Assembly: GCA_021146305.1 (NCBI GenBank)
Contig: GCA_021146305.1_4336.1
DNA length: 43,091 nucleotides
Direction: 5' to 3' (one strand)
Origin: a phage
The translations under genes and the position numbers were made by a program. A model generated the notes under the pieces. That model saw only the letters and a list, made by a program, of their open reading frames with translations. It had not been told where the DNA came from and ran no database searches. Positions 6,648 through 42,584 of this stretch are shown here, one piece after another. The first letter of the stretch is position 1; each line of letters starts with the position of its first letter.

Positions 6648-6676
6648 TTGCACACCCCAATATAATAGTGTACTAT
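6648..6676 (+). promoter_or_regulatory. sigma70-like promoter with operator palindrome
   Basis: TTGCAC (6648-6653), 17-bp spacer, TACTAT (6671-6676); palindrome TAATAG-tgta-CTATTC (6663-6678) overlaps the -10; about 40 bp upstream of ATG 6718. Confidence 0.55.
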
Positions 6677-6717
6677 TCACTTACACCAACGATGTTATCC
6701 CAAACAGGAGCTACACC

Positions 6718-6909
6718 ATGACGGGTATTACTATGTTCTTCTTAATCATTATCGTTTTAGTTTATTTTATTCCATTTCTCGTGGCGCATATGCGCGACCA
6801 TAAAGCGAAATTAGCGATATTCATGGCTAATCTGTTTCTTGGATGGGTTCTGCTGCCGTGGGTATTTATTTTAATCTGGGCTTGCAACTCGAATGTCAAA
6901 GAGAAGTGA
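6718..6909 (+). CDS. small membrane protein
   Basis: 64 aa from ATG 6718 preceded by AGGAG; two hydrophobic helices (FFLIIIVLVYFIPFLVA and LFLGWVLLPWVFILIW). The track ORF 6580-6909 is longer, but the internal ATG has the RBS and promoter. Confidence 0.55.
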   Translation: MTGITMFFLIIIVLVYFIPFLVAHMRDHKAKLAIFMANLFLGWVLLPWVFILIWACNSNVKEK

Positions 6910-15329: not shown

Positions 15330-15561
15330 GGGTGATTACCTCTGATTTCGTCTTGCCTTCGTTGTCAGCGGCTGCGGCCTTTGATTCATCCTGCTGCTGC
15401 CGTTGTGTTTTCTTCGCTAACTCAGCCTGTGCTTTCTGCTGCTGCTGAGAAACTAGATTCGCCCGGCCTTCGTTCCAGCCGCTGCGGTACTGATAGATGC
15501 CGTGTGCGTAAGCCAGGATGATGAAACATGCTCCCGCTACGACAGTTGCTTTAAGATTCAT
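15175..15561 (-). CDS. i-spanin (Rz-like)
   Basis: 128 aa; N-terminal transmembrane helix (VVAGACFIILAYA), Gln-rich coiled-coil periplasmic region; overlapping partner lipoprotein gene. Confidence 0.65.
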   Translation of the reverse strand: MNLKATVVAGACFIILAYAHGIYQYRSGWNEGRANLVSQQQQKAQAELAKKTQRQQQDESKAAAADNEGKTKSEVITREVVKYIKTPGRSVCTFDPERVQLKYRAVANANSIPGYDDDAAAVQTGPAK

Positions 15562-15671
15562 GTTTCTCCTTTCTCGATAAGTAAAGCCCCGCCATAAAGC
15601 GGGGCGCTAGTCCTTATCATTTAAACATAGAAACGGCGTAATCTCAGTAAACCAGTTACTTTTTACACAAG

Positions 15672-15826
15672 CAATAGAGTATGGCCCTTCCGAACGCGTC
15701 AGCGTAACTACACTCAGGACTTACGTCCCGCTCCGTTACCTGCCCGCGCCGCGGTCGCTTGTTCATACTTCACAAGCTCAGGTGGAGCTTAGCACATTTT
15801 TAGTGAAAAGTCAACTATTCGAATAG
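15672..15826 (-). promoter_or_regulatory. conserved promoter + structured leader module, copy 1
   Basis: Leftward promoter TTGACT (plus coords 15809-15814), 17-bp spacer, TAAGCT (15786-15791), with palindrome CTATTC-GAATAG (15815-15826) just upstream; about 110-bp conserved leader 15672-15778 shared with copy 2, including stem ggac-ttac-gtcc (15717-15728). Confidence 0.55.
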
Positions 15827-15880: not shown

Positions 15881-15909
15881 TTGCGCACCCCAATATAATA
15901 GGGTACTAT
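15881..15909 (+). promoter_or_regulatory. sigma70-like promoter with operator palindrome
   Basis: TTGCGC (15881-15886), 17-bp spacer, TACTAT (15904-15909); palindrome TAATAG-ggta-CTATTC (15896-15911); near-identical to the promoter at 6648-6676. Confidence 0.55.
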
Positions 15910-15936
15910 TCATTCTATCGAACCGGGGAGGCCGTC

Positions 15937-16038
15937 ATGTTAGTCGTTATTTCAGTAGTAATTGCAGTTGATGCGGTGATGTTTCTTTGGGCTTGTAGCG
16001 GTATTGGTGACATTGACACGGGTAATGGTGAACTATGA
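15937..16038 (+). CDS. micro-peptide, hydrophobic
   Basis: 33 aa (MLVVISVVIAVDAVMFLWACSGIGDIDTGNGEL); GGGGAGG RBS; stop overlaps the start of the next gene (ATGA). Confidence 0.4.
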   Translation: MLVVISVVIAVDAVMFLWACSGIGDIDTGNGEL

Positions 16039-16379
16039 AATATATTAAATTAGCAGTAGCAGGTGTTGTAGCCGTTTGTTTGAGTGGTTGCGTAAGGTCG
16101 TTGCCAGACCCGGCTTTACAGGTTTATCAGGCAGGGGATACAACGGCAACATGTAATCAGTTACTATCGAGAATCGCCACGACAAAACAAGCTCAAGCCA
16201 ACGCTACGCACCGTGTTAATAAGCAAATAGGTACTAACGTTGTACTCGGTGTTACAGGCGCATTCCTGATTGTTCCGCTGTTCTTTATGGACACGGGCGC
16301 CGGGCCTTCTATGGACGAGATGACAGCCGGTAATCGTCTGTCGCAGTTACAACAAACATACGACGAGAAATGCAAATGA
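16035..16379 (+). CDS. lipoprotein with internal hydrophobic segment
   Basis: 114 aa; signal peptide ending in lipobox LSGC; later hydrophobic stretch VVLGVTGAFLIVPLFF. Confidence 0.6.
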   Translation: MKYIKLAVAGVVAVCLSGCVRSLPDPALQVYQAGDTTATCNQLLSRIATTKQAQANATHRVNKQIGTNVVLGVTGAFLIVPLFFMDTGAGPSMDEMTAGNRLSQLQQTYDEKCK

Positions 16380-18060: not shown

Positions 18061-18092
18061 TTGATTAAATTCTACATTCAAATGTAGAATTT
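18061..18092 (+). promoter_or_regulatory. promoter overlapped by a perfect 12-bp inverted repeat
   Basis: TTGATT (18061-18066), spacer, extended -10 TGTAGAAT (18083-18090); inverted repeat AAATTCTACATT-ca-AATGTAGAATTT (18067-18092). Confidence 0.55.
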
Positions 18093-18121
18093 AAACGTAC
18101 ACTTAAACAGGAGAAATACAC

Positions 18122-18775
18122 ATGAAACTGCAAACATTAGAGTTCCCTTATGGAGAAATCACTTTTGACCGTGAAAACTTTATTAACGTAAACGAGCTGG
18201 TTGACCAGATGAACCGTTGGCGTTTAGACAACGGCATGGGGGCCAGAGAGCTTCGCCAGGTCATGGCAACGGATGGCTTCAAGATTTTCAAGGAGGAATG
18301 CGAAAAACAACTCGGAATCGAGAATGCCATAAGGGCGACGAAAGGCCGAAACGGTCGCACCTTTGCATGTCTCCATCTGGCAGTATATATTGCTGAGCAA
18401 TACAGCGCCTATTTCCATTTCCTCGTTATCGACCGCTTTATCACGCAACGGCAGGTAGAACTACGAAACATTGGCGCGGTGAGCTTTGTCGAGCTTAACG
18501 CTGCCGTTAGTCGAATGATCGAGCGCACGGAGGGAAGAATTGGCCACAGTGGACACTTCATACAGGTGGCTAAAGCGGTAAAGGAATCCGTAGATATCCG
18601 CGACGTAACGGGTTTCGATACATGGGACTCTCAGGATGCGAAGACCAATCAGTTGCGAAGTGACATCCAGAAAGCTCTGGTGACGCTTCTTGACATGGAG
18701 GCCGTTAATACATGGGGTGAACTGAAAGAGGCGATACCTCGGGTTGTGCGTAAATGTGCGGCTAATATACGTTAA
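18122..18775 (+). CDS. KilA-N domain protein
   Basis: 217 aa; N-terminal ~100 aa fit the KilA-N pattern (GRNGRTFACLHLAVYIAEQYSAYFHFLV); AGGAGA RBS; plus-strand gene inside a minus-strand structural block. Confidence 0.55.
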   Translation: MKLQTLEFPYGEITFDRENFINVNELVDQMNRWRLDNGMGARELRQVMATDGFKIFKEECEKQLGIENAIRATKGRNGRTFACLHLAVYIAEQYSAYFHFLVIDRFITQRQVELRNIGAVSFVELNAAVSRMIERTEGRIGHSGHFIQVAKAVKESVDIRDVTGFDTWDSQDAKTNQLRSDIQKALVTLLDMEAVNTWGELKEAIPRVVRKCAANIR

Positions 18776-23891: not shown

Positions 23892-23920
23892 AATATAATA
23901 GGGTCGAGGATAATAGTCAA
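23892..23920 (-). promoter_or_regulatory. sigma70-like promoter (leftward)
   Basis: On the minus strand TTGACT (plus coords 23915-23920), 17-bp spacer, TATATT (23892-23897); directly downstream of the lysis-cassette terminator. Confidence 0.6.
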
Positions 23921-23942
23921 CTAGTCATCACAGAAAATAGAT

Positions 23943-26275: not shown

Positions 26276-26306
26276 CTTCTGTCTCTCCTCTAGTTTGTGT
26301 AAATGA

Positions 26307-26335
26307 ATAGTAGCCTATTCTATCTTAGTGTGCAA
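26307..26335 (-). promoter_or_regulatory. sigma70-like promoter with operator palindrome (leftward)
   Basis: Minus-strand TTGCAC (plus 26330-26335), 17-bp spacer, TACTAT (26307-26312); perfect palindrome GAATAG-tagc-CTATTC at 26305-26320. Confidence 0.55.
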
Positions 26336-26356
26336 GTAAATTTTATTGGTGTTTGT

Positions 26357-26446
26357 ATTGTCGCATTTCCTGCAATAGTCGCTTGGATTGTTGCATCTCC
26401 TGCAATAGTCGCTTGGATTGTTGCGTTTGGTGAAAGTGTCGCTTTT
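26357..26446. repeat. 30-bp tandem direct repeats (2 near-identical copies + 1 degenerate)
   Basis: attgtcgcatttcctgcaatagtcgcttgg (26357-26386), attgttgcatctcctgcaatagtcgcttgg (26387-26416), degenerate third copy 26417-26446. Confidence 0.8.
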
Positions 26447-26468
26447 TGACGACACTAAGTTAAAGTTG

Positions 26469-26490
26469 TACGCTGCTGTGTAGCAGCGTA
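26469..26490. other. perfect hairpin (9-bp stem, 4-nt loop)
   Basis: TACGCTGCT-gtgt-AGCAGCGTA; a second hairpin AGTGTCG-(8 nt)-CGACACT lies at 26435-26456; both downstream of small ORF 26513-26662 and may act as minus-strand terminator or protein-binding site. Confidence 0.5.
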
Positions 26491-26512
26491 AGTCACTAAG
26501 CCAAATATTAAC

Positions 26513-27175: not shown

Positions 27176-27210
27176 AACCCTCACTCCTTATGTCTCGTTT
27201 CGATAAGTGA

Positions 27211-27239
27211 ATAGTAGCCTATTATGTTGGGGTGTGCAA
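27211..27239 (-). promoter_or_regulatory. sigma70-like promoter with operator palindrome (leftward early)
   Basis: Minus-strand TTGCAC (plus 27234-27239), 17-bp spacer, TACTAT (27211-27216); palindrome GAATAG-tagc-CTATTA at 27209-27224. Confidence 0.55.
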
Positions 27240-27404: not shown

Positions 27405-27548
27405 CAATAGACTTTGGCCCTTCCGAAAGCGCCAGCGGAACTACACTCAAGTGCCTAATGGCACGCGTTGCGTTCCCTGCCGCTCCGCGGTCGCTTGCGA
27501 TATCTCACAAGCTCAGTGAAGCTTAGCATATTTTTAAGTAAAAGTCAA
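27405..27548 (-). promoter_or_regulatory. conserved promoter + structured leader module, copy 2
   Basis: Leftward promoter TTGACT (plus 27543-27548), 17-bp spacer, TAAGCT (27520-27525); leader 27405-27512 aligns with copy 1; stem gtgcc-taat-ggcac (27451-27464) replaces ggac-ttac-gtcc of copy 1. Confidence 0.55.
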
Positions 27549-27595
27549 TACCAGAAGCATCTTTTGTATCTTAGTAACTTTGTGTGGTGTTTTGG

Positions 27596-27624
27596 TTGCT
27601 TTTACATTCACGCTATCCTATACT
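27596..27624 (+). promoter_or_regulatory. sigma70-like promoter (rightward early)
   Basis: TTGCTT (27596-27601), 17-bp spacer, TATACT (27619-27624); about 30 bp upstream of ATG 27656. Confidence 0.5.
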
Positions 27625-27655: not shown

Positions 27656-27838
27656 ATGCAGCATTACATGACACAGAATGAAGTGGCTGAACGTATCGGG
27701 GTGACACGTCAAACCATTAATAACTGGTTGCGCAGCGGTAAATTCCCTGATTGCTGTATTAAGGTTATGGGTCGCCGTTTACCAGGAACATTTGACCGTA
27801 ATAAAGTTGAAGCATGGATTAAGGAGAACGTGAAATGA
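27656..27838 (+). CDS. HTH DNA-binding protein (AlpA / excisionase-like)
   Basis: 61 aa from ATG 27656 with AGGAGA RBS; helix-turn-helix VAERIGVTRQTINNWLRSG. Confidence 0.55.
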   Translation: MQHYMTQNEVAERIGVTRQTINNWLRSGKFPDCCIKVMGRRLPGTFDRNKVEAWIKENVK

Positions 27839-28244: not shown

Positions 28245-30493
28245 ATATTGTTTTTGCAACGCTGCGTAACACATTCGATAAAAACCCTGTAGCGCGTGAA
28301 ATGCCGCTGGAGCAGTTCGTAGAGTATGTCTGCGATACATCGAAGCGTTTATCCGTGGATCCGTCGTGGTCTAAGGAAGAGTACGACGCTGCCAAGATTA
28401 AGCAGAAAGCTATTGCGCCTGTTGGTGGTCGCCGTAAGAACGCTATTCTTGAAGACAGTGTGGTTAAGTTCGACTTTGACCATCTCAACCGTACTCAGTA
28501 CCGCGACCTGACCCGCAAATTCAAGAACGCTCCGTTCTTCAATATTCTGCACACAACGGCGTCGCATCAGCACGCGTGTAAAAACGGTGATTACGCCTTT
28601 CGCGTTCTGGTTCCGGCTCGCACTCCGTTTAACTCTAACGACGCGTGGATGGTGCAACGTGCTATTTGTGCAGAGTTAGAAATAGATGAAGCCTTGCGTG
28701 ACCACTGCACGGAAGACGGCAACCGCCTTATCTATCTGCCACATAGAGAGTCAAAGATAACGGTTACAGAAGGGCGTGTTATCCGTGCCGAGCGGTACAT
28801 CAAGAAAGCCGAAGAGATGGGGTTGAGTAAACGTGAAGTTAAGACACTTGCCGCCGATGAGTATGGGCTTAACGCTGATATAGCGCATTTCTGCGAAGCC
28901 GAGCTTGGCCTTGACGCTTTATCTTCCGGGCGCGGGTACGAAGTCCCATGCCCTAACGAACATCTGCATACAGGCAAAGGCTCCACAAGCATCATGCTTG
29001 ATGGTAAAGAAGTGCGCTTTGTGTGCCAGCATACAAACAACGGCGCTTGCACCGAGCTTAACCGCCGACAGCATTTGGCCCTGCGTATGTGCGGCCTGCC
29101 AGACGAGCTTAACGTAGACAAGCAACCTATCAGTATTAACAGCATTCGTGCGGCTCTGCCTGATTTACCGGATGAAGAGATTGAAGAACTGCACCGCACA
29201 GAGAACGAGGAGCCTGTAACTTGCACGCTGGAAGACCTTGAAGAAGAGGACGAGTTACCAGAACCGGTAAAGGCTGATTTCGTCGTAGAAGGGTACATGC
29301 CGTCGGATTGTATCTGGGATATTGTCGGGGAATCCGGCACGTACAAATCATTCTATACGCTGGGGATGATGTACCTGAGCGCCACCGGGTACCGGTTTGC
29401 GGGGGCTGACACCCAACGTTGCCACCATTTCTATATTGACGGCGAGGGTGGTGCAGCTACACGAACACGTATTGATGCACTCGCGGCTAAATATGGCGAG
29501 GAAGGTAAAGATTATGTACATGTCATCGATATGGGCGAAATACTCGCTACGCATGGTGATAAAAAAATTCCAGCTCTAATCCGCAGGATGCGCGAAACCG
29601 CAGGGGATGAACCTATTGGCATGGTTGCCTTCGACACCCTTAACCAGACGCTGGCCCTGACGATTGATAAGTTCGACGAGAACAGTTCATCAACGGCAAT
29701 CGGTATGGGTAAAGTTATCGCCATCCTGAAAGAAGTGCGCGATGCAACTAAAGCCGCTGTCGGTGTCGTTCACCATACTCCGAAGGGCGGAAAGAAAGCC
29801 CGCGGCAGTGGAGCATTGTATGCGGGTGTCGACGTGGAACTGACAATCGAACGCGCTACCGACCGTCAGATAAACGTATACCACTCTAAATTTAAGCACG
29901 GTCCGCAACAGAAGACGGTTGGCATGGTACTGGAGTCTGTACAGTTCCGTGAAGCACCGCCGCCGAAAGAGTACCGCGCGGTTGAGTTCCTCGGTAGCAC
30001 AGAGGAATACGGCACAATAGTAAACCTTGACCTGCCTGAGCCGCACAAGGCGCTTGTATTGATGCCGTGGGGTTTCGAGCCGTTCAAAACTGACGAGGAG
30101 AAAGAGCGGGAAGAAGGGTTGACGAAAGAAGGTAAAGAAAATGTACGTAAAACCGTAGAGAACGCCGTCAACAGTTCGGAGGCCACGATACTCGCGGCGT
30201 TTGAACTGGCGGAAGGAACCTACAACGGCAACGAAGGCATCACGGTATCCGCAGCGAATAAGCTCGCGCAGTCTGGCCCCAACGCAAAGGCGTTTAACTC
30301 CAAAGAAGCCATAGAACGCGGGAAGATTAAGAAAATGGTTGAGGCTGGGTATCTTGTTCCGGGTACTGACGAAAACAATCAGATAATCCCAGGCCGTTAC
30401 AGACTGAACACCATGATAACAGATAACAAGATTCCGAAGACAATATACGAACCGAATGAAATGCTGACAGTGACCGAGGAGGATTTGGAATGA
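28241..30493 (+). CDS. replication protein: primase-like N-terminal region + RecA/DnaB-type P-loop ATPase
   Basis: 750 aa; Cys/His cluster (CPNEHLH...C..H...C) suggesting a zinc-binding primase-like domain; central Walker A GESGTYKS; acidic C-terminal region. Confidence 0.55.
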   Translation: MNIVFATLRNTFDKNPVAREMPLEQFVEYVCDTSKRLSVDPSWSKEEYDAAKIKQKAIAPVGGRRKNAILEDSVVKFDFDHLNRTQYRDLTRKFKNAPFFNILHTTASHQHACKNGDYAFRVLVPARTPFNSNDAWMVQRAICAELEIDEALRDHCTEDGNRLIYLPHRESKITVTEGRVIRAERYIKKAEEMGLSKREVKTLAADEYGLNADIAHFCEAELGLDALSSGRGYEVPCPNEHLHTGKGSTSIMLDGKEVRFVCQHTNNGACTELNRRQHLALRMCGLPDELNVDKQPISINSIRAALPDLPDEEIEELHRTENEEPVTCTLEDLEEEDELPEPVKADFVVEGYMPSDCIWDIVGESGTYKSFYTLGMMYLSATGYRFAGADTQRCHHFYIDGEGGAATRTRIDALAAKYGEEGKDYVHVIDMGEILATHGDKKIPALIRRMRETAGDEPIGMVAFDTLNQTLALTIDKFDENSSSTAIGMGKVIAILKEVRDATKAAVGVVHHTPKGGKKARGSGALYAGVDVELTIERATDRQINVYHSKFKHGPQQKTVGMVLESVQFREAPPPKEYRAVEFLGSTEEYGTIVNLDLPEPHKALVLMPWGFEPFKTDEEKEREEGLTKEGKENVRKTVENAVNSSEATILAAFELAEGTYNGNEGITVSAANKLAQSGPNAKAFNSKEAIERGKIKKMVEAGYLVPGTDENNQIIPGRYRLNTMITDNKIPKTIYEPNEMLTVTEEDLE

Positions 30494-30804
30494 ATATTTA
30501 CGATTTTATAGATAACCCGTTTAAAGCAGTGAAGGCAGGATACCGCCCGTCATACCTGACATGTGTTTCCGCTGTAAGCAACAACTGGTGGACTTTTTGT
30601 GTGTATGCAGCGGGGATTTTTGCGGAGTTTAAAGACATTTTAGACATGACGCTGGCAGAGATTATAAAGTGCCTTTTCAAATTAATTATATCGATAACTA
30701 TTGTTATAAGTTTTCCTGTAAGTGCGTGGTTTCTCGCCTGGATTCAGTACCTGAACGTGCAACACACTATTAAGAATTTGGAAGAACTCGATAAGTTGCT
30801 ATAA
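30490..30804 (+). CDS. membrane protein
   Basis: 104 aa with two to three hydrophobic helices; ATGA coupling to the upstream gene. Confidence 0.5.
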   Translation: MNIYDFIDNPFKAVKAGYRPSYLTCVSAVSNNWWTFCVYAAGIFAEFKDILDMTLAEIIKCLFKLIISITIVISFPVSAWFLAWIQYLNVQHTIKNLEELDKLL

Positions 30805-30827
30805 AAAGAAAGGGGCTTTAAGCCCCT
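30803..30827. terminator. intrinsic terminator (mainly minus strand)
   Basis: Hairpin AGGGGCT-tta-AGCCCCT (30811-30827) with A-run 30802-30810 on the plus strand (T-run on the minus strand); overlaps the last codons of the XRE gene. Confidence 0.5.
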
Positions 30828-31033
30828 TCACCTAACGCCAGCCACTTGGCGTCTACTTCCAGAACTTCCGCCAGTTTGAACAGCGTTGCCGGGCGGACGT
30901 CCTGAGTTACTCCAAGTGCCAGTTGGTTAATCGCGCCCTGGGAAACGCCGGTCAGGGCCGCCAAACGGCGCTGGGAGATGCCGAGTTCTTTACGGCGTTG
31001 TTCTACACGGATACCTAGTTCAGATGGTTGCAT
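30818..31033 (-). CDS. XRE-family (Cro/CI-type) HTH transcriptional regulator
   Basis: 71 aa; HTH ISQRRLAALTGVSQGAINQLALG; strong AAGGAG RBS; divergently oriented inside the rightward replication operon, with two operator palindromes just upstream. Confidence 0.75.
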   Translation of the reverse strand: MQPSELGIRVEQRRKELGISQRRLAALTGVSQGAINQLALGVTQDVRPATLFKLAEVLEVDAKWLALGEGA

Positions 31034-31062
31034 GTCAGTTACTCCTTAGTCAGTTGATATGT

Positions 31063-31126
31063 GAATAGTACCATATTAATTATTTTAGAAAAGCCCATTG
31101 ACATGTGAATAGTTCGCTATTATAGT
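31063..31126. promoter_or_regulatory. divergent promoter / operator region of the XRE gene
   Basis: Two palindromes GAATAG-tacc-ATATTA (31063-31078) and GAATAG-ttcg-CTATTA (31107-31122); rightward promoter TTGACA (31098-31103), 17-bp spacer, TATAGT (31121-31126); leftward promoter for the XRE gene has only a weak -35. Confidence 0.55.
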
Positions 31127-31154
31127 TAGCCCATACCAAACGAGAGGGGCAGAT

Positions 31155-31382
31155 ATGAACACAATCACTGGGGCCATAGCTAAAGGTTTTCGAGCAATTT
31201 TCGGCGCTCCGCAAGAAGTGTGCACAAAACATAAATTTGTACTTTCTTGCGTAGTAGGGGATGAGTTTGATGGGTTCGATAAACTTGTTGTCTGCGACCA
31301 TTGCGGGCAAGAAGCTATTCAACACTCAAACGGTAAATTTGAACTAATAGACGATAGCCTTACTGAAGGCGACGGTGAGTAA
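31155..31382 (+). CDS. hypothetical acidic protein
   Basis: 75 aa; Cys motif C..C...CDHC; first gene downstream of the promoter at 31098-31126. Confidence 0.45.
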   Translation: MNTITGAIAKGFRAIFGAPQEVCTKHKFVLSCVVGDEFDGFDKLVVCDHCGQEAIQHSNGKFELIDDSLTEGDGE

Positions 31383-31406
31383 CTTACACAAACAGGAGAG
31401 AAACAA

Positions 31407-31907
31407 ATGTTAGAGAAATTCTTAGTATTGCTGGAACGTTTCGTAGTTGCACATGAACTGATTGCCGCGAACAGTGCGAAACAAGTTGTTCAGGTTGCCA
31501 CGCCGCTGGAAGTAGAGACGGTATCGTACACCAAAGAAGCGGTAGCTGAGTGCGCTGAAGAAGCAACAAAAGAAATCCCGGTTGAAGGTGAAGACGTAGT
31601 TGACACTAAACCGGCGGAGGAAGAGAAGCCAAAACGCAAGCCGCGTAAAGCTAAAGTAGAGGAACCTGCGCCAGAACCGGAAGAAGAGAAAGAAGAAGTC
31701 GATTACAAGTCTCTGCGTGACCAGATTCAGGCCATCGACGATGCAATTAATGAAGGTCCTAGCGATGCCGCGTGCGATGATTCTGATGAACTGCTGGAAG
31801 AGTTCACAGGTAAGAAGATGAAGATTGCCGCGATTAAAGACGAAGACCTGGTTGAGTACCTGGAACGCCTGACAGCAATCAAGAACAAGTATTTCGGAGA
31901 AGAATAA
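31407..31907 (+). CDS. hypothetical acidic protein with Lys/Pro/Glu-rich linker
   Basis: 166 aa; AGGAGAGA RBS; central low-complexity KPAEEEKPKRKPRKAKVEEPAPEPEEEKEE. Confidence 0.5.
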   Translation: MLEKFLVLLERFVVAHELIAANSAKQVVQVATPLEVETVSYTKEAVAECAEEATKEIPVEGEDVVDTKPAEEEKPKRKPRKAKVEEPAPEPEEEKEEVDYKSLRDQIQAIDDAINEGPSDAACDDSDELLEEFTGKKMKIAAIKDEDLVEYLERLTAIKNKYFGEE

Positions 31908-31912
31908 CTATC

Positions 31913-31932
31913 AGGCGGCCTTCGGGCCGCTT
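31913..31932 (+). terminator. weak intrinsic terminator / attenuator
   Basis: Hairpin GGCGGCC-ttcg-GGCCGC followed by a short T-run. Confidence 0.4.
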
Positions 31933-31950
31933 TAACGGAGGGGCGGAAAT

Positions 31951-32223
31951 ATGATTTACCAACTCTACCGCGCCGTAGACAGGCGGGATAACACAGAGGC
32001 GTTGTGGCTGTTGCGTGCGCCGTCCGGTGCGCACCAGATGGAAGAGATGGCGTACTTAGGCAAAGTACCGCGTCCTAAAGATATAGGTCGTCACGTGTCG
32101 CGGATTAAACGCACGACATTCGCCAAGCCCGACTTTTATGTCTTCGAGTCGATGTATGGATGGGCCTTACATTGCGACCACAAGACACGGCATTTAATTG
32201 ACCAGTGGGAGAACAGAGCATGA
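31951..32223 (+). CDS. hypothetical protein
   Basis: 90 aa; GGAGGGG RBS. Confidence 0.45.
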   Translation: MIYQLYRAVDRRDNTEALWLLRAPSGAHQMEEMAYLGKVPRPKDIGRHVSRIKRTTFAKPDFYVFESMYGWALHCDHKTRHLIDQWENRA

Positions 32224-33461
32224 TTCTAAAAGAACGAGGCGGCAATAATGATGTACACGCCTTACTGTCACCGTCAGGCGCTAAAAAGTGGCTGTCATGC
32301 GCTGCGTCGCTGGCGTGTGAAAAAGATATCCCTAACACGTCGGGTAAAGCCGCGGTATTAGGAACCGCCATGCACACCATAGCTGAGGTCCATCTCAACG
32401 CCTATATACGCGGCACTGCGTTGCCGTTGGAGCGTGAAGTCGGCGCTTACGTACTGGATGAAGGCAAAGGTCAGATTAAGGCGCTAATCAGCCCGATGAA
32501 AGGCGCGGTACTGATTACGGCGGACATGATTGAGCAGGTGCGCAAGTACACCGACTACTGCAAAGCGATTATAGACGTAGCGACTTACGCCAAGCTGGAA
32601 ATGCGTGTCAATCTTACTGAGGTATTGCATCCGGGGTATGAAGGCGTTGAGACGTTCGGAACCGCTGACCTCGTTGCTGTCCAGGAACTGGCAAACACCG
32701 ACGAGCACATGCTCATTATCGGCGACCTGAAAACCGGGCGGCATCGCGTCGAAGCGAAAGAAAACAAGCAGCTTATGCTTTACGCGCTCGGTGTTTATCG
32801 TCGACTCAAGAGACGTTATAACATAACAACCGTTCGTCTGGTCATCTTCCAGCCTTACGCTGGGGGTGCGACAGAGTGGGGCATCTCGGTTGAAGGACTG
32901 GAACTGTTCGCTAAGTTCGCACAGAAACGCGCGCTGTTAGCGCTTGATGCGTATTTCCGTGGCAAGAAGAACCTGAAAGCGTCGGACTTCAAGCCGTCGG
33001 TAGATGGTTGTCAGTGGTGCCGGTTCTCTGAACAATGCGCTGCGCGTACAAAGACGGTTAATTCTGTACTGGCGGAAGAACTGGAAGACGACTTTGTGCT
33101 GGAACTGACGCCGGAGCAACTCGTAGCTGAGTATGAGAAGTTGCCGCTGTTGCGCCAGCACATCGACAAGGTTGAGAAAGCTATGGCGGCCGCGTTGCAT
33201 TCAGGTAAGAAAGTTCCTGGTTACAAGTTGGTTGAGGGCCGCCCGGGCAATCGTGCGTGGAAAGACGCAGAGAAAGTGGCTGGCAAGTATGGCATAGCGC
33301 TAATGAAGCAAGTGCTCATGACGCCAACCGAAGCGGCTAAAGTCATACCGGAAGATGAACTGAAAGACTTCATTACCCGTAAGCCAGGCGCACCATGTGT
33401 TGCAACGGCAGACGACAAACGTCCTGAGTGGAATAGGGTAACAGAGGAGGATTTAGAATGA
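32205..33461 (+). CDS. RecB-family (Cas4-like) exonuclease with Fe-S cysteine cluster
   Basis: 418 aa; PD-(D/E)xK signature (DLVAV ... EHMLIIGDLKTG) and Cys pattern C-x2-C-x5-C (CQWCRFSEQC) plus an N-terminal Cys, as in Cas4/AddB-type nucleases. Confidence 0.65.
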   Translation: MGEQSMILKERGGNNDVHALLSPSGAKKWLSCAASLACEKDIPNTSGKAAVLGTAMHTIAEVHLNAYIRGTALPLEREVGAYVLDEGKGQIKALISPMKGAVLITADMIEQVRKYTDYCKAIIDVATYAKLEMRVNLTEVLHPGYEGVETFGTADLVAVQELANTDEHMLIIGDLKTGRHRVEAKENKQLMLYALGVYRRLKRRYNITTVRLVIFQPYAGGATEWGISVEGLELFAKFAQKRALLALDAYFRGKKNLKASDFKPSVDGCQWCRFSEQCAARTKTVNSVLAEELEDDFVLELTPEQLVAEYEKLPLLRQHIDKVEKAMAAALHSGKKVPGYKLVEGRPGNRAWKDAEKVAGKYGIALMKQVLMTPTEAAKVIPEDELKDFITRKPGAPCVATADDKRPEWNRVTEEDLE

Positions 33462-33661
33462 TTCAAGTAAATGAAATGCCCACAGATAAAGATTTTGTGA
33501 TGATATGGCGCTGGGGCGGTTATATCCATTCGGAATCGTTTACGTTCCTGAACGGCACGATGGAGCGATACAACCATGTGGAGGATGAATTCGAACCCGT
33601 TGATATGAATGATTTCGAGAACATAGTCCGTATTGCGAAATTTTATTTGACACCTGAATAG
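33458..33661 (+). CDS. hypothetical acidic protein
   Basis: 67 aa; ATGA coupling to the exonuclease gene. Confidence 0.4.
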   Translation: MIQVNEMPTDKDFVMIWRWGGYIHSESFTFLNGTMERYNHVEDEFEPVDMNDFENIVRIAKFYLTPE

Positions 33662-33675
33662 TTAGCTATTATAGT
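33647..33675 (+). promoter_or_regulatory. sigma70-like promoter with operator palindrome
   Basis: TTGACA (33647-33652), 17-bp spacer, TATAGT (33670-33675); palindrome GAATAG-ttag-CTATTA (33656-33671); same architecture as the promoter at 31098-31126. Confidence 0.55.
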
Positions 33676-33742
33676 TCTAATCACTGGCCGGGCAGTTCCC
33701 GGAGTAAACTTTGAAATATAAACTGAAAAGCGAGAAATCAAG

Positions 33743-34369
33743 ATGGGTATTAAACTGAATCTGCGTAAAGTAAACACTGCTTGGGTTAACGTATTCGAAC
33801 GCGAAAAAGACCGTGAAAACGATGATGGCTCAATCACTAAAGGTCAGTACAGCGCAACCATTATCCTGCCGTCCGACCATGCTCAAATCGATGCGCTCTA
33901 CGACACTGTTTACGCTGTAGTTGAAGAAGCGTTGGGTGCTGCCGCTGCCGAGAAATGGATGAAGTCCAACTACGGCGAAGGTAAGCACATGGATAAATGC
34001 GCGATTAAAGACATTGCCGAGCGCGACAATCCATTTGAAGACTTCCCGGAGGGCTTCTACTTCAAAGCGAAGGCACAGAAGCAGCCGCTGATTGTAACCT
34101 CTAAAAAAGGTGAGACTCAGGTAGAACAGGACTTCAATGTAGACGGTGAACAGATTGAAGGTGAACAGGTTTACAGCGGCTGCGTCGCTAACGTAAGCGT
34201 TGAAATCTGGTTCAGCCAGAAATACAAAGTCCTCGGCGTTAACCTGCTGGCGATTAAATACGTTGGCGAAGGCAAAGCGTTCGGCGGTTCTAAAGTCGCT
34301 GCGAGCGTCAATGACCTGGAAGACGACGAAGAAGATGAAGCACCGCGCCGCGAACGTCGCCGCCGCTAA
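33743..34369 (+). CDS. single-stranded DNA-binding protein-like (tentative)
   Basis: 208 aa with acidic C-terminal tail (DLEDDEEDEAPRRERRRR); directly upstream of the DNA polymerase gene; assignment by analogy only. Confidence 0.4.
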   Translation: MGIKLNLRKVNTAWVNVFEREKDRENDDGSITKGQYSATIILPSDHAQIDALYDTVYAVVEEALGAAAAEKWMKSNYGEGKHMDKCAIKDIAERDNPFEDFPEGFYFKAKAQKQPLIVTSKKGETQVEQDFNVDGEQIEGEQVYSGCVANVSVEIWFSQKYKVLGVNLLAIKYVGEGKAFGGSKVAASVNDLEDDEEDEAPRRERRRR

Positions 34370-36967: not shown

Positions 36968-37251
36968 TGACCCCGGAAGGCAAGATTCAGAAATACGCAA
37001 AAGAGCAATTCGAGGCCATTGGCGGCCTCGTTCGTAAACTTTCGTACGAGGGGCGCTCCGGCGCCCCTGACCTGCTGGTAATTCTCCCCGGCGGCATCGT
37101 CTGGTTCGTCGAGGTTAAGAAAGACGAAAACACGAAGCCAGACACGCACCAGTTACGTGAGCATGAGCGGATGCGTAAACGCGGTGCAAATGTTTTTGTC
37201 GTTGGTTCGTTCAAACAGGTTGACGACCTAATAGCGAACTATTATAGTTAA
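36967..37251 (+). CDS. VRR-NUC domain nuclease
   Basis: 94 aa; PD-(D/E)xK core GAPDLLVILPGG...VEVKK typical of VRR-NUC. Confidence 0.6.
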   Translation: MTPEGKIQKYAKEQFEAIGGLVRKLSYEGRSGAPDLLVILPGGIVWFVEVKKDENTKPDTHQLREHERMRKRGANVFVVGSFKQVDDLIANYYS

Positions 37252-40247: not shown

Positions 40248-42584
40248 TTAACTGTTTGTCAGGGTAGCCACTAATGTCTCAAGCGCTATAATCCTTTTCT
40301 CTAACTGAGCTGCTTTACGTCGCTGTAACGCAGCCTCTAATATCAATACCTCATCATAACGAATACCATACCGCTCCCCTGCCGCCGTAGCTTTTGTTAA
40401 TACTTCCCCAGATTCCTCATCAATAATTTCCGGAGACGCTTCCCACTTATCGTAGCACAGGAAACCGTACTTAGTCGCGTCCAACCCGTGCCGGGTAAAC
40501 GCCTCAATTGCTCGTTGGGCTACTACTCCAAAGTGCCACCTAGCTGCATCCTCCCCCTTCTCTGCAACCCTATCCAGGTACTTATATTGAACTAAATTAA
40601 CTTCAGCCCAAGCGTCTAACATAGCGTCAGTTAATTCCAGGGGTAGTGTCTTGGCTCTCTCGTCAGACGTAACCGTAAACGCTGTTTGAGTGAATCCGCC
40701 GGACAAAGCTCTACTTGCCGACCCGATAGCGACGGTGTTTGCACTGGATGGTGTAATAGCCGTCGGGGCTATTTGAATATACGCCGATGCGTCAGAGGCT
40801 AAGCGTAAATAACCATTAACCAGAGAAATAGTTCGAGAAGTACCATCAGATGTGAGTAATTTTATCTGAGAGGTCGTACCTCCACCAATAGCCAAAGATG
40901 TAGCCCCGTCGGAAATTAGTCTGAATTTATCAGCTGTCACAAAAGGCAATGCAGAAGTATTTATATACTTAGTGAACCACTCAAACCTACCGGACATGGA
41001 CCCTATGTATTGTCCTATAGCGGGGGCGTGTACCACGTTACTGGTGGTAGTACCATCAATGCTAGAGACTCCGGTTATAGTAGATCGTGAACTAAGAAGA
41101 CTGTTCTTGGGTCCAGGGTGCTTTACTTCCACAAAGTTACGGGTAGTCCCTGTCTCTAGTGTAACAACCCCGGAAGCACTATACATAGGGAAAACCGATG
41201 CGTAGTTATTACTAGCTCCGTCTAAAAACCTAATAGAAGTCGCGGTTTGCGTTTGCCCTAAACTATTAGTTCCGCTGCACCCAACCATTAGAATATTATC
41301 AGCGGCATTATAGTTGCCTTGTAATGTAACGCCGTGTGCTTGCGTGGCCTCGGAGGAGGAGTAATCAGCTACAACATTTGTCACCAGATTACCTGAACCC
41401 TCGCCGGCGACCACAGCGGCATACTTAGCGTTATTAGCAACAACATTACTGATAATATTACTGCTAGGGGCATTGGTCGTCTCGGTGCCATTATAAACAA
41501 CGTGCTGACAGCTTTGCCCAATGACGCCACTAACAACATTACATTTAGCATCTGTTTTCAACTCAACCGCCCCGAATTGGGGGTAGTTTCGGGCGATAAC
41601 ATCGTTGATTATAGTATTACTTGCGGACTCAAACAGCACGCACCCCGCTTTTTTATTTGTAGCATACCCGGAGTAGTCACCCCGTATGCCGCTTACAATG
41701 TATCCAGACGGACCCCCATCGCTAGGGTATGCTACTAAACTAAATCCAGTTCCCTTTGCATTTTTAAAATCAATACCTTTAATAGTAACGTCCTGCCCAC
41801 CGGCGAAGGAAACCTGCTGACCCTGTGTGAAGTCCGTTGCCTTATTTCCTACAATACTCAGGGTGCTAAGTAGCCCTCCTGCAGGTTTATCAAAGATTAA
41901 GTGGTTTCCAGAATCGTTTGATTGTTTTAAAACCCCACCCCCTGTTCCGAATAGAGAGCATGTCGGGTGGGAGAGTAGCGACGTACTATACTCCCCTTGC
42001 GGTACAAGCACCCCGTTACTAGCTGTAAGCGCTCGGTTAAGGGCGTTTGTGTAATCAGGGTCAGTACCTAAATAGAAGTCCAGAACGGAAACTACTTCTC
42101 TATTTTTATCGTGTTGCGTCCTGCCGACAGCGTCGGTAAATGGTTGTCGGACGCCGACCATGGCATCACCTAATGTCGCATTGTCTGTGCTGGATAAATC
42201 ATTGCGCAAATCCGGGTCAGTCTGCGGCTTCCAGTTAGCGTCACCAACCGGGTTAAACGATGCGGGGACAACAACCGGCAGAGTCCCGGTATACGAGTAC
42301 CACGTCTTGCTTACAGGGTCATACACCACTTTGTCGCGGTCATTAGCGGTTAACGTACCACCAGTGGAAAAGTCCCATGACACCGGAGAAAAACCAGCGT
42401 CACGCAACACGGCTGGTAACGTCTTTTGGGTCTGCCCTGTAACGGCATTTGTCGCGTAATCAATATCGGCGCCACCTGCAATACCTCCAGATTTGCCAGT
42501 GATAACCTCGGCTTCGAAAATCTGGTGTTTCTTGGCGGTTTGTAAATCCGCCAGGCTTAAAACGTCACCGCATCCGCTTGACAT
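40248..42584 (-). CDS. tailspike / depolymerase-type receptor-binding protein with C-terminal intramolecular chaperone
   Basis: 778 aa; strong AGAGGA RBS; Gly/Asn/Thr/Ser-rich central region; C-terminal ~139 aa begins TSDERAK (S codon 40665-40667), the signature of the peptidase S74 auto-cleaving chaperone domain. Confidence 0.75.
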   Translation of the reverse strand: MSSGCGDVLSLADLQTAKKHQIFEAEVITGKSGGIAGGADIDYATNAVTGQTQKTLPAVLRDAGFSPVSWDFSTGGTLTANDRDKVVYDPVSKTWYSYTGTLPVVVPASFNPVGDANWKPQTDPDLRNDLSSTDNATLGDAMVGVRQPFTDAVGRTQHDKNREVVSVLDFYLGTDPDYTNALNRALTASNGVLVPQGEYSTSLLSHPTCSLFGTGGGVLKQSNDSGNHLIFDKPAGGLLSTLSIVGNKATDFTQGQQVSFAGGQDVTIKGIDFKNAKGTGFSLVAYPSDGGPSGYIVSGIRGDYSGYATNKKAGCVLFESASNTIINDVIARNYPQFGAVELKTDAKCNVVSGVIGQSCQHVVYNGTETTNAPSSNIISNVVANNAKYAAVVAGEGSGNLVTNVVADYSSSEATQAHGVTLQGNYNAADNILMVGCSGTNSLGQTQTATSIRFLDGASNNYASVFPMYSASGVVTLETGTTRNFVEVKHPGPKNSLLSSRSTITGVSSIDGTTTSNVVHAPAIGQYIGSMSGRFEWFTKYINTSALPFVTADKFRLISDGATSLAIGGGTTSQIKLLTSDGTSRTISLVNGYLRLASDASAYIQIAPTAITPSSANTVAIGSASRALSGGFTQTAFTVTSDERAKTLPLELTDAMLDAWAEVNLVQYKYLDRVAEKGEDAARWHFGVVAQRAIEAFTRHGLDATKYGFLCYDKWEASPEIIDEESGEVLTKATAAGERYGIRYDEVLILEAALQRRKAAQLEKRIIALETLVATLTNS

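Follow-up and report, generated by a model that had tools for sequence, protein, structure and literature searches.

Promoter-embedded dyads dispersed across a Kagunavirus genome as predicted operators of a Cro-like XRE protein

Why does one short dyad recur inside promoters scattered over a phage genome, and which protein would read it? The stretch of DNA analyzed here (the window, 43,091 nucleotides) is by sequence comparison a complete or near-complete genome of Kagunavirus (subfamily Guernseyvirinae), an E. coli siphovirus, and the 5 kb at 29000-34000 are about 94% identical to vB_EcoM_SHAK7858 and Bas70 and shared with 445 phage records. In annotated relatives the structural genes lie mostly on the minus strand and the replication module (31.1-40.1 kb) on the plus strand. 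A gene for an XRE-type regulator sits between the primase-helicase operon and this replication module, facing one or more divergent genes for small proteins of no assigned function and recombination genes. The phage group is reported to be strictly lytic (PMC9787291, PMC11990801). We considered a lambdoid immunity switch (a bistable CI-Cro module) at this locus and rejected it, as the complete annotation of phage Jersey and the 33-kb stretch of Bas70 that we examined contain no cI or integrase gene and no CI-type repressor divergent from XRE.

The initial annotation had placed the dyad GAATAG-N4-CTATT[A/C] at seven sites, all of which do hold it: six match exactly (6663(-), 15896(-), 26305, 27209, 31107 and 33656), while the seventh, at 31063-31078 (GAATAGTACCATATTA), departs from the motif by one base. 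Exact matches numbered 0.00 by expectation and did not arise in any of 100 dinucleotide-preserving shuffles, and the dyad at 26305-26320 has perfectly palindromic arms. Allowing up to one mismatch in the 14-bp core AATAG-N4-CTATT gave 11 matches (1.08 expected; shuffle maximum 4), including three further core matches at 37229, 23911 and 15805. The first two lie in predicted promoters, raising the earlier count of at least seven dyad-bearing promoters to at least nine. No clear promoter was found at 15805-15826, where the spacerless palindrome described previously (15815-15826) is indeed present. The eleventh match, at 26504 in the intergenic region 26276-26512, has no promoter at its position and looks like a chance occurrence.

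We then counted all 6-mer dyads with spacers of 0-10 nucleotides, assuming no motif, and this dyad ranked at the top in the window and first in phage Jersey and in nearly all of about 30-32 Kagunavirus and Jerseyvirus loci. Jersey carries 6 sites, against 0.11 expected, at orthologous promoters. Distant XRE homologues in other viral contigs (L038-L067) were left out of this comparison because they belong to unrelated, GC-rich phages, in which the highest-ranking dyads amount to compositional noise. Two Kagunavirus relatives (L020 and L023) hold 6-7 copies of a different dyad, GTAACA-N5-TGTTAC, which is not among the top-ranked dyads of the window, and may carry a second regulator-operator set.

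Table 1. Coordinates of the XRE gene and of the predicted promoters and dyads in the window.
Feature	Coordinates	Strand	Details
Promoter TTGCAC-17-TACTAT with operator 6663-6678 over the -10	6648..6678	+	First gene 6718-6909
Degenerate dyad GAAAAGTCAACTATTC	15805..15820		Overlaps the CTATTCGAATAG palindrome; status uncertain
Promoter TTGCGC-17-TACTAT with operator 15896-15911	15881..15911	+	Predicted to drive a 33-aa peptide (15937) and gene 16035-16379
Promoter TTGACT-17-TATATT with dyad 23911-23926	23892..23926	-	After a terminator; upstream of small-gene, terminase and portal genes
Degenerate extra site TAATAGTCAACTAGTC	23911..23926		Overlaps the -35 of TTGACT-17-TATATT (-)
Promoter TTGCAC-17-TACTAT with perfect dyad 26305-26320	26305..26335	-	Predicted to drive 26275 leftward: small genes, then lysis genes
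Promoter TTGCAC-17-TACTAT with operator 27209-27224	27209..27239	-	Predicted to drive 27184 leftward (small-gene operon)
XRE / Cro-like gene, 71 aa, HTH_3	30818..31033	-	Pfam, PDB sequence matches, model
Operator O-xre GAATAGTACCATATTA	31063..31078	.	Covers the -10 of the XRE promoter
XRE promoter, extended -10 TGgTACTAT	31065..31073	-	Inside O-xre; poor -35 CTTTTC 17 nt upstream
Alternative XRE promoter TTCACA-16-TAAAAT	31082..31109	-	Consensus scan, 10/12
Rightward promoter TTGACA-17-TATAGT (11/12)	31098..31126	+	Predicted to drive 31155 onward: recombination and replication genes
Operator O-R GAATAGTTCGCTATTA	31107..31122	.	Spacer and first two -10 bases; 44 bp from O-xre
Promoter TTGACA-17-TATAGT with operator 33656-33671	33647..33675	+	Predicted to drive ssDNA-binding protein and DNA polymerase genes
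Promoter TTGACG-17-TATAGT with operator 37229-37244	37220..37248	+	Predicted to drive methylase and helicase genes
Extra site TAATAGCGAACTATTA	37229..37244		Inside TTGACG-17-TATAGT

The promoters listed in Table 1 are consensus predictions of the host sigma-70 type rather than mapped starts, and each is followed about 30-90 nt downstream by a ribosome-binding site and start codon. The initial annotation had sorted them into two architectures, both of which we recovered at their exact coordinates, but the dyad takes three to four positions relative to the promoter rather than two. Type A promoters (TTGC[AG]C-17-TACTAT at 6648-6676(+), 15881-15909(+), 26307-26335(-) and 27211-27239(-)) have a dyad that begins 9 nt past the -35 and spans roughly -20 to -5, the -10 included; those with TTGCAC match 7 of 12 consensus positions. 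In type B promoters (TTGAC[AG]-17-TATAGT at 31098-31126, 33647-33675 and 37220-37248, all on the plus strand; 10-11 of 12 positions matched) the dyad begins 3 nt past the -35, occupies the spacer and reaches into the -10, whose first two bases it provides. One arm of the dyad gives the whole or part of the -10 (TACTAT, or the TA of TATAGT), except at 23892-23920(-), TTGACT-17-TATATT, where the -35 falls within the degenerate dyad; the orthologous sites of this dyad (23911) lie at 42337 in Jersey and 16784 in St162. Dyad centers are near -12.5, -18.5 and -33.5, all inside the core promoter.

Downstream of the first type A promoter, gene 6718-6909 encodes a superinfection-immunity protein (PF14373, Imm_superinfect, E 1e-13) and is followed by nuclease-, phosphatase- and kinase-like genes. 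The product of 16035-16379, downstream of the second, carries an N-terminal LSGC motif that we read as a putative lipoprotein signal, and both cassettes look like candidate superinfection-exclusion genes. Plus-strand cassettes and bidirectional terminators lie in the path of the late structural operons, and directly upstream of the ribosome-binding site that serves the structural gene ending at 15561 (-) there is a terminator-like hairpin at 15586-15605. Two paralogous copies of an element about 120 bp long, some 80% identical, occur at 15700-15815 and 27433-27552, each upstream of a plus-strand promoter; one hairpin of the element differs in sequence with its pairing kept, folding z-scores are -1 to -2, and Rfam, tRNA and RNA-folding analyses of the element gave nothing significant. 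Just upstream of the 26307-26335 promoter, 26353-26444 holds 2.4-3.1 copies of an iteron-like 30-bp tandem repeat (TTGGATTGTTGCATCTCCTGCAATAGTCGC). The 33647 promoter is followed at 33676-33710 by a conserved 5'-leader hairpin (CCGGGCAGNTCCCGG, with TCACTGG before it) that is common to Kagunavirus, Jerseyvirus and St162-like phages.

At the XRE gene itself, the two dyads reported in the divergent control region both overlap predicted promoters: O-xre covers the -10 of the XRE promoter, and O-R lies within the strong rightward promoter. The poor -35 previously ascribed to the XRE promoter is present (CTTTTC), and we additionally found an extended -10 within the dyad. A consensus scan offered an alternative XRE promoter whose -35 overlaps the left arm of O-R and whose predicted start falls inside O-xre; by eye, the Jerseyvirus orthologue of the XRE promoter reads TTGCGT-17-TACTAT. 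A distance of 44-45 bp separates the two dyads in Kagunavirus, and one of 55 bp in Jerseyvirus (by eye), and we may speculate that such spacings, near whole helical turns, would suit cooperative binding. A type I-E CRISPR array in E. coli 2017.09.02CC (NZ_AP025214.2; locus L070, 1411-1988) carries two adjacent spacers against the XRE locus of this phage, one matching the control region between the operators (31070-31101) perfectly over 32 nt, with an ATG PAM by our own reading of the flanks, and the other matching the XRE gene at 30838-30869 with one mismatch.

To separate an operator from a promoter that is merely conserved, we compared relatives in alignments anchored on genes, having set aside an entropy analysis on motif-selected sites, which is biased toward conserved arms. 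For the XRE control region, 21 distinct Kagunavirus sequences were aligned from the XRE start codon, which keeps the choice of sites from influencing the outcome. In all 21 the two arms of the 31107 dyad are unchanged, whereas the linker from TTGACA to the dyad occurs in eight forms of 3 or 4 nt and the center reads TTCG, TTCA, TTAG or TTTG; O-xre is unchanged in all but two. Over the gene-anchored alignments as a whole, 2-4 bases at the center vary. Alignments anchored on the downstream gene gave the same pattern of fixed arms and variable linker at the 33647 and 37220 promoters, upstream of whose -35 there is no homology between lineages. The position of the dyad also varies while its sequence is kept, with distances to the -35 of 3-4, 6, 9 or 10 nt or an overlap with the -35. 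In Jersey the dyads begin 3, 6 or 10 nt past the -35, and at the immunity-gene promoter (6648) the window has a 9-nt linker and a TACTAT -10 where Jersey has a 6-nt linker and TATTAT, with the dyad intact in both.

Arms that stay fixed while linker, center and position vary fit an operator rather than simple promoter conservation. RNA polymerase makes no particular sequence demand on the spacer, yet it is there that type B promoters have their left arm, and the invariance of this arm likewise favors an operator. The variable placement of the dyad within the core promoter fits steric repression; neither RNA polymerase contacts nor position-dependent activation would tolerate it.

The protein encoded beside the paired dyads is a plausible reader of them. 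It matches Pfam HTH_3 (PF01381) over residues 11-65 with an E value of 3.9e-13 (49.7 bits against a curated cutoff of 23), as well as PHROGs transcriptional repressor/regulator families, and its best PDB sequence matches by phmmer are 434 Cro (71 aa, 39% identity, E 8.5e-6) and the DNA-binding domain of 434 repressor (E ~1e-5), with a weak match to P22 c2 (E 0.005). A single-sequence structure model, moderately reliable in fold detail, has a pLDDT of 81 and four DSSP helices, the last long and of low confidence, and Foldseek aligned it to 434 Cro (2cro), 1zug, HipB, C-proteins, SinR and P22 c2 at TM 0.6-0.7 (0.61-0.69). Like proteins of the 434 Cro type (about 65-75 aa), it is all-helical with a lambda-repressor-like fold and has no C-terminal oligomerization or peptidase domain; the sites, too, have the form expected for that type, a dyad of about 14-18 bp with conserved arms and a variable center, located on the predicted -10, spacer or -35 of nine promoters, two of them at the regulator's own gene. 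In a lambdoid Yersinia phage with a cI-cro-cII arrangement, cro encodes a full-length homologue (34% identity). In a coarse RNA-seq study of the Kagunavirus K1B4, an HTH-domain gene (_008) is among four early genes, and a "specific DNA binding" gene (_004), located just before an AAA-domain gene (_005), is among the middle genes (PMC12645636). From gene order we infer that _004 is the XRE gene and _008 the gene of a second small regulator (HTH_17, discussed below), and the expression data are then weakly compatible with regulation by XRE.

We found that operator variants follow the type of XRE protein. Homologues occur in 488 phage records and fall into discrete types: Kagunavirus proteins are 93-100% identical to that of the window, Jerseyvirus proteins about 48% and those of St162 / FSL SP-031-like phages about 40%, with recognition helices SQGAINQ, SQSLITH and TQSAISH (St162-like), respectively. 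The corresponding half-sites are GAATAG, TAATAG and TATTA[GC]. Kaguna-type genomes have one G-outer arm per site, or two at 26305 (outer base T 134, G 127), whereas TAATAG is nearly the only arm in Jersey-type genomes (T 142, G 3); St162-like genomes carry TATTA[GC]-N4-[GC]TAATA in a looser set (11 matches versus 3.95 expected). The clearest comparison comes from the 33647 promoter, where two upstream haplotypes are common to both lineages with an identical -35 and linker (TTGACA CCT), and where the first base of the arm is G in 20/20 loci with a Kaguna XRE and T in 13/13 loci with a Jersey XRE. This G/T co-variation could be a lineage effect, as few independent events underlie the pattern. 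Moreover, the Kaguna and Jersey recognition helices differ at 4 of 7 positions while the operator cores are identical (AATAG-N4-CTATT), so that the core is conserved more than helix divergence would suggest, a feature that XRE binding does not fully explain. The Serratia phage Otaku (Guernseyvirinae, XRE 42% identical) was tried as a fourth XRE-operator pair and proved uninformative, with no multi-promoter dyad, no genome-wide dyad enrichment and only two GATTGCT repeats in its control region.

Taken together, these observations suggest, with a probability that we put at roughly 0.65, that the dyads serve as operators, read by a dimer of the 71-aa Cro-like XRE protein that the phage itself encodes. 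XRE is favored as the binder by its HTH_3 and 434 Cro likeness, by the two dyads that adjoin its gene and by the operator variants that follow its type, and the initial annotation's choice of XRE as the candidate is in this respect strengthened, with arm conservation and variable positioning also in its favor. Most likely, XRE acts as an orphan Cro, repressing its own promoter together with most of those for early and DNA-metabolism genes. We propose that its preference for an outer G gives GAATAG wherever promoter function does not demand T. Binding, the sign of regulation as repression, its timing and the identity of the promoters are here what we infer from DNA sequence.

A different phage protein might bind the dyad, the candidates being the 60-aa HTH_17 (excisionase/MerR-like) protein of 27656-27838 and the product of 18122-18775, which has a weak resemblance to KilA-N. 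Across 443 Kagunavirus and Jerseyvirus records HTH_17 shows 80-100% identity, a closer parallel to the conserved dyad core than the 48%-identical XRE offers; it is absent from St162-like genomes, in which the dyad differs; an HTH gene, probably its own, is among the only four early genes in the Kagunavirus RNA-seq data (PMC12645636); and its own promoter is free of the dyad, none being found in 27596-27624 (TTGCTT-17-TATACT), the promoter of the 27656 HTH_17 gene and primase-helicase operon. Against this, four HTH_17 variants occur among genomes with a Kaguna XRE, one with a changed recognition helix (VSTMTLNRW) and another with a helix identical to that of Jersey, and all of these genomes retain Kaguna-type operators with a G outer base. 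In St162-like phages the dyads are still placed in promoters with no HTH_17 protein detectable, and the HTH_17 gene is 3.4 kb away from the paired operators. To our knowledge, small winged-helix proteins such as HTH_17 are not typical dimeric readers of dyads. The product of 18122-18775 matches KilA-N below the Pfam cutoff and belongs to a PHROGs amidase family. We therefore consider another phage binder unlikely.

HTH_17 was also evaluated as an AlpA- or Q-like antiterminator. AlpA acts as a single molecule on a 6-bp GGGACG element (PMC9371919), and antiterminators of the Q/AlpA type place one monomer of about 8 helices on a short asymmetric element between -35 and -10 and insert a ring into the RNA exit channel, whereas HTH_17 has only 60 aa and the site is a dyad; this possibility was rejected. 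As a separate observation, gene 18122-18775 has a predicted promoter (TTGATT-18-TAGAAT) containing a perfect palindrome, TTAAATTCTACATT-CA-AATGTAGAATTTAA (18065-18094), that looks like an operator for another regulator.

Alternatively, XRE could bind the dyads and also activate some promoters, namely the weak TTGCAC-17-TACTAT or divergent late ones, while repressing the strong TTGACA promoters, in the manner of restriction-modification C proteins or lambda CI at PRM. The poor consensus match of the TTGCAC-type promoters (7/12), the resemblance of the XRE fold to the controller proteins C.BclI and C.AhdI, and dyad spacings of 44-45 and 55 bp, near whole helical turns and suited to cooperativity, would all be compatible with this. 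However, the dyad centers fall within the core promoter, a position from which bound proteins usually obstruct RNA polymerase, and the variable distance to the -35 is hard to square with activation that depends on position. An activating role thus appears quite improbable.

We judge it very improbable that the dyad has no dedicated binder and is instead an intrinsic promoter feature (symmetric, -10-like and bidirectional) or a promoter cassette copied around the genome. Symmetric bidirectional sigma-70 promoters have overlapping -10 hexamers on opposite strands and divergent starts about 18 bp apart, and the arms here do resemble -10 hexamers, with dyads overlapping the -10 (at 23911, the -35). 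The opposite strand of CTATTATAGT reads TATAAT, although this hexamer has no -35, and the regions around the dyads at 6663 and 15896 are divergent, face structural operons and contain weak opposite-strand promoter matches (TTGGTG-16-TATTAT, by eye, and TCGATA-18-TATATT). Nevertheless, the bidirectional model leaves unexplained why the left arm in TTGACA-type promoters, which sits in the spacer, is invariant while the adjoining linker changes. Read on the opposite strand, GAATAG becomes CTATTC, which is not a -10; no divergent gene accompanies the in-operon promoters 33647 and 37220, and the dyad persists where the -10 shifts along it. The outer base, furthermore, switches with XRE type in identical promoter backgrounds. 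The flanks of paralogous sites are unrelated, which makes simple duplication unlikely. Finally, binding by a host transcription factor or resident prophage repressor, conceivable only because all the promoters are of the host sigma-70 type and with nothing found in its favor, is hardly credible given that operator variants differ between Jersey-type and St162-type phages, both of which infect Salmonella, and follow the phage XRE type, that none of 5,426 complete E. coli genomes contains DNA like the XRE gene and control region or a homologous immunity region, CRISPR spacers being the only matches, and that we know of no E. coli regulator with an AATAG-N4-CTATT site.

If the dyads are XRE operators, regulation would proceed as follows. 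Host sigma-70 RNA polymerase would fire the dyad-bearing promoters after infection, and XRE protein would be made from a weak, self-repressed promoter facing away from the near-consensus rightward promoter. As it accumulates, XRE would occupy the dyads with their -10-like arms, mask the -10 and spacer and thereby exclude sigma-70 RNA polymerase at about nine promoters, that is, its own and at least eight others. These targets would include the recombination, DNA polymerase and helicase operons, two leftward small-gene operons and the two exclusion-like cassettes. The net effect would be early shut-off, or negative feedback as genome copies rise, resembling the lytic role of lambda Cro with no CI partner. 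The dyads at 6663 and 15896 face structural operons, however, and if divergent late promoters overlapped them, a plain early-to-late switch would be too simple a description. A fuller version of the XRE reading, which we advance tentatively and at somewhat less than even odds, is that a CI-less Cro has expanded into a genome-wide regulator in a strictly virulent subfamily, its operator arms doubling as -10 hexamers in nearly all early, DNA-metabolism and exclusion-cassette promoters so that it competes directly with sigma-70 for global shut-off or copy-number-compensating feedback, with at least three distinct co-evolved specificities (GAATAG, TAATAG and TATTAG/C) and single-base re-tuning of recombinant promoters to suit the resident Cro. 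Repressors and promoters would then form naturally orthogonal pairs.

Therapy and biocontrol are widely proposed uses of Kagunavirus and Jerseyvirus phages, which are now represented in the BASEL model collection and include CM001, cited as attractive for synthetic biology (PMC11990801). Papers state that these phages lack repressors (PMC9787291), and the XRE gene is often annotated as "repressor," "DicA" or "lambda repressor-like," raising questions about lifestyle. A Cro-type lytic regulator with a regulon of about nine promoters, if true, would settle this annotation issue and provide the first transcription-control map for the subfamily. Engineering, too, would gain compact repressible promoters that come in natural variants of specificity. 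The searchable full-text literature (subscription journals being outside its coverage) holds no description of these operators, only annotation-level mentions of the gene and one coarse RNA-seq study. The class of mechanism is classical, either a Cro/CI-type repressor with promoter-overlapping dyads or a dispersed-operator regulon as for P1 C1, but its genome-wide version under Cro-like control has apparently not yet been described for this phage group. The mechanism is ordinary; what sets this case apart is that it would span the whole genome of a virulent phage, with regulator and operator co-varying cleanly.

Among known systems, phage 434 offers the closest likeness. The 434 operators are 14-bp dyads with a 5-4-5 layout and a variable, uncontacted center, and AATAG-N4-CTATT has the same layout; as at 434 OR and OL, operators overlap divergent promoters next to the regulator gene. 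The proteins are alike in having a single HTH_3 domain, in length (71 aa) and in sequence (39% identity), including the conserved first glutamine of the recognition helix. The half-site differs, however (ACAAG/ACAAT in 434, AATAG in Kagunavirus), and Kagunavirus XRE has no CI partner, lysogeny module or tandem three-operator array, its sites instead being dispersed over at least nine promoters and 31 kb with arms that double as -10 hexamers. P22 operators (AAG-N4-CTT core) share the N4 center and the 5-4-5 layout, and lambda Cro, which turns down PL and PR, and P22 Cro/c2 resemble the proposed XRE in being small, early, dimeric repressors that lower early transcription, their own included. Lambda and P22 differ in being temperate phages with two operator clusters, whereas XRE sites are on many separate promoters in a group reported as lytic (PMC9787291, PMC11990801).

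The controller proteins C.AhdI and C.BclI are likewise HTH_3 proteins of about 70-80 aa (TM ~0.62) with dyads in their own promoters and a role in timing after DNA entry, but they act at one locus through paired C-boxes and activate before repressing, whereas nothing suggests activation by XRE, and 37229, the dyad ahead of the methylase operon, is just one among nine. In genome-wide reach, the parallels are P1 C1 and the stoperators of mycobacteriophage L5 gp71, in which one repressor acts at many sites across the genome and controls unrelated operons. Those repressors maintain lysogeny, belong to other protein families and recognize asymmetric sites, and the L5 stoperators lie within transcribed regions, whereas the Kagunavirus dyads lie in core promoters.
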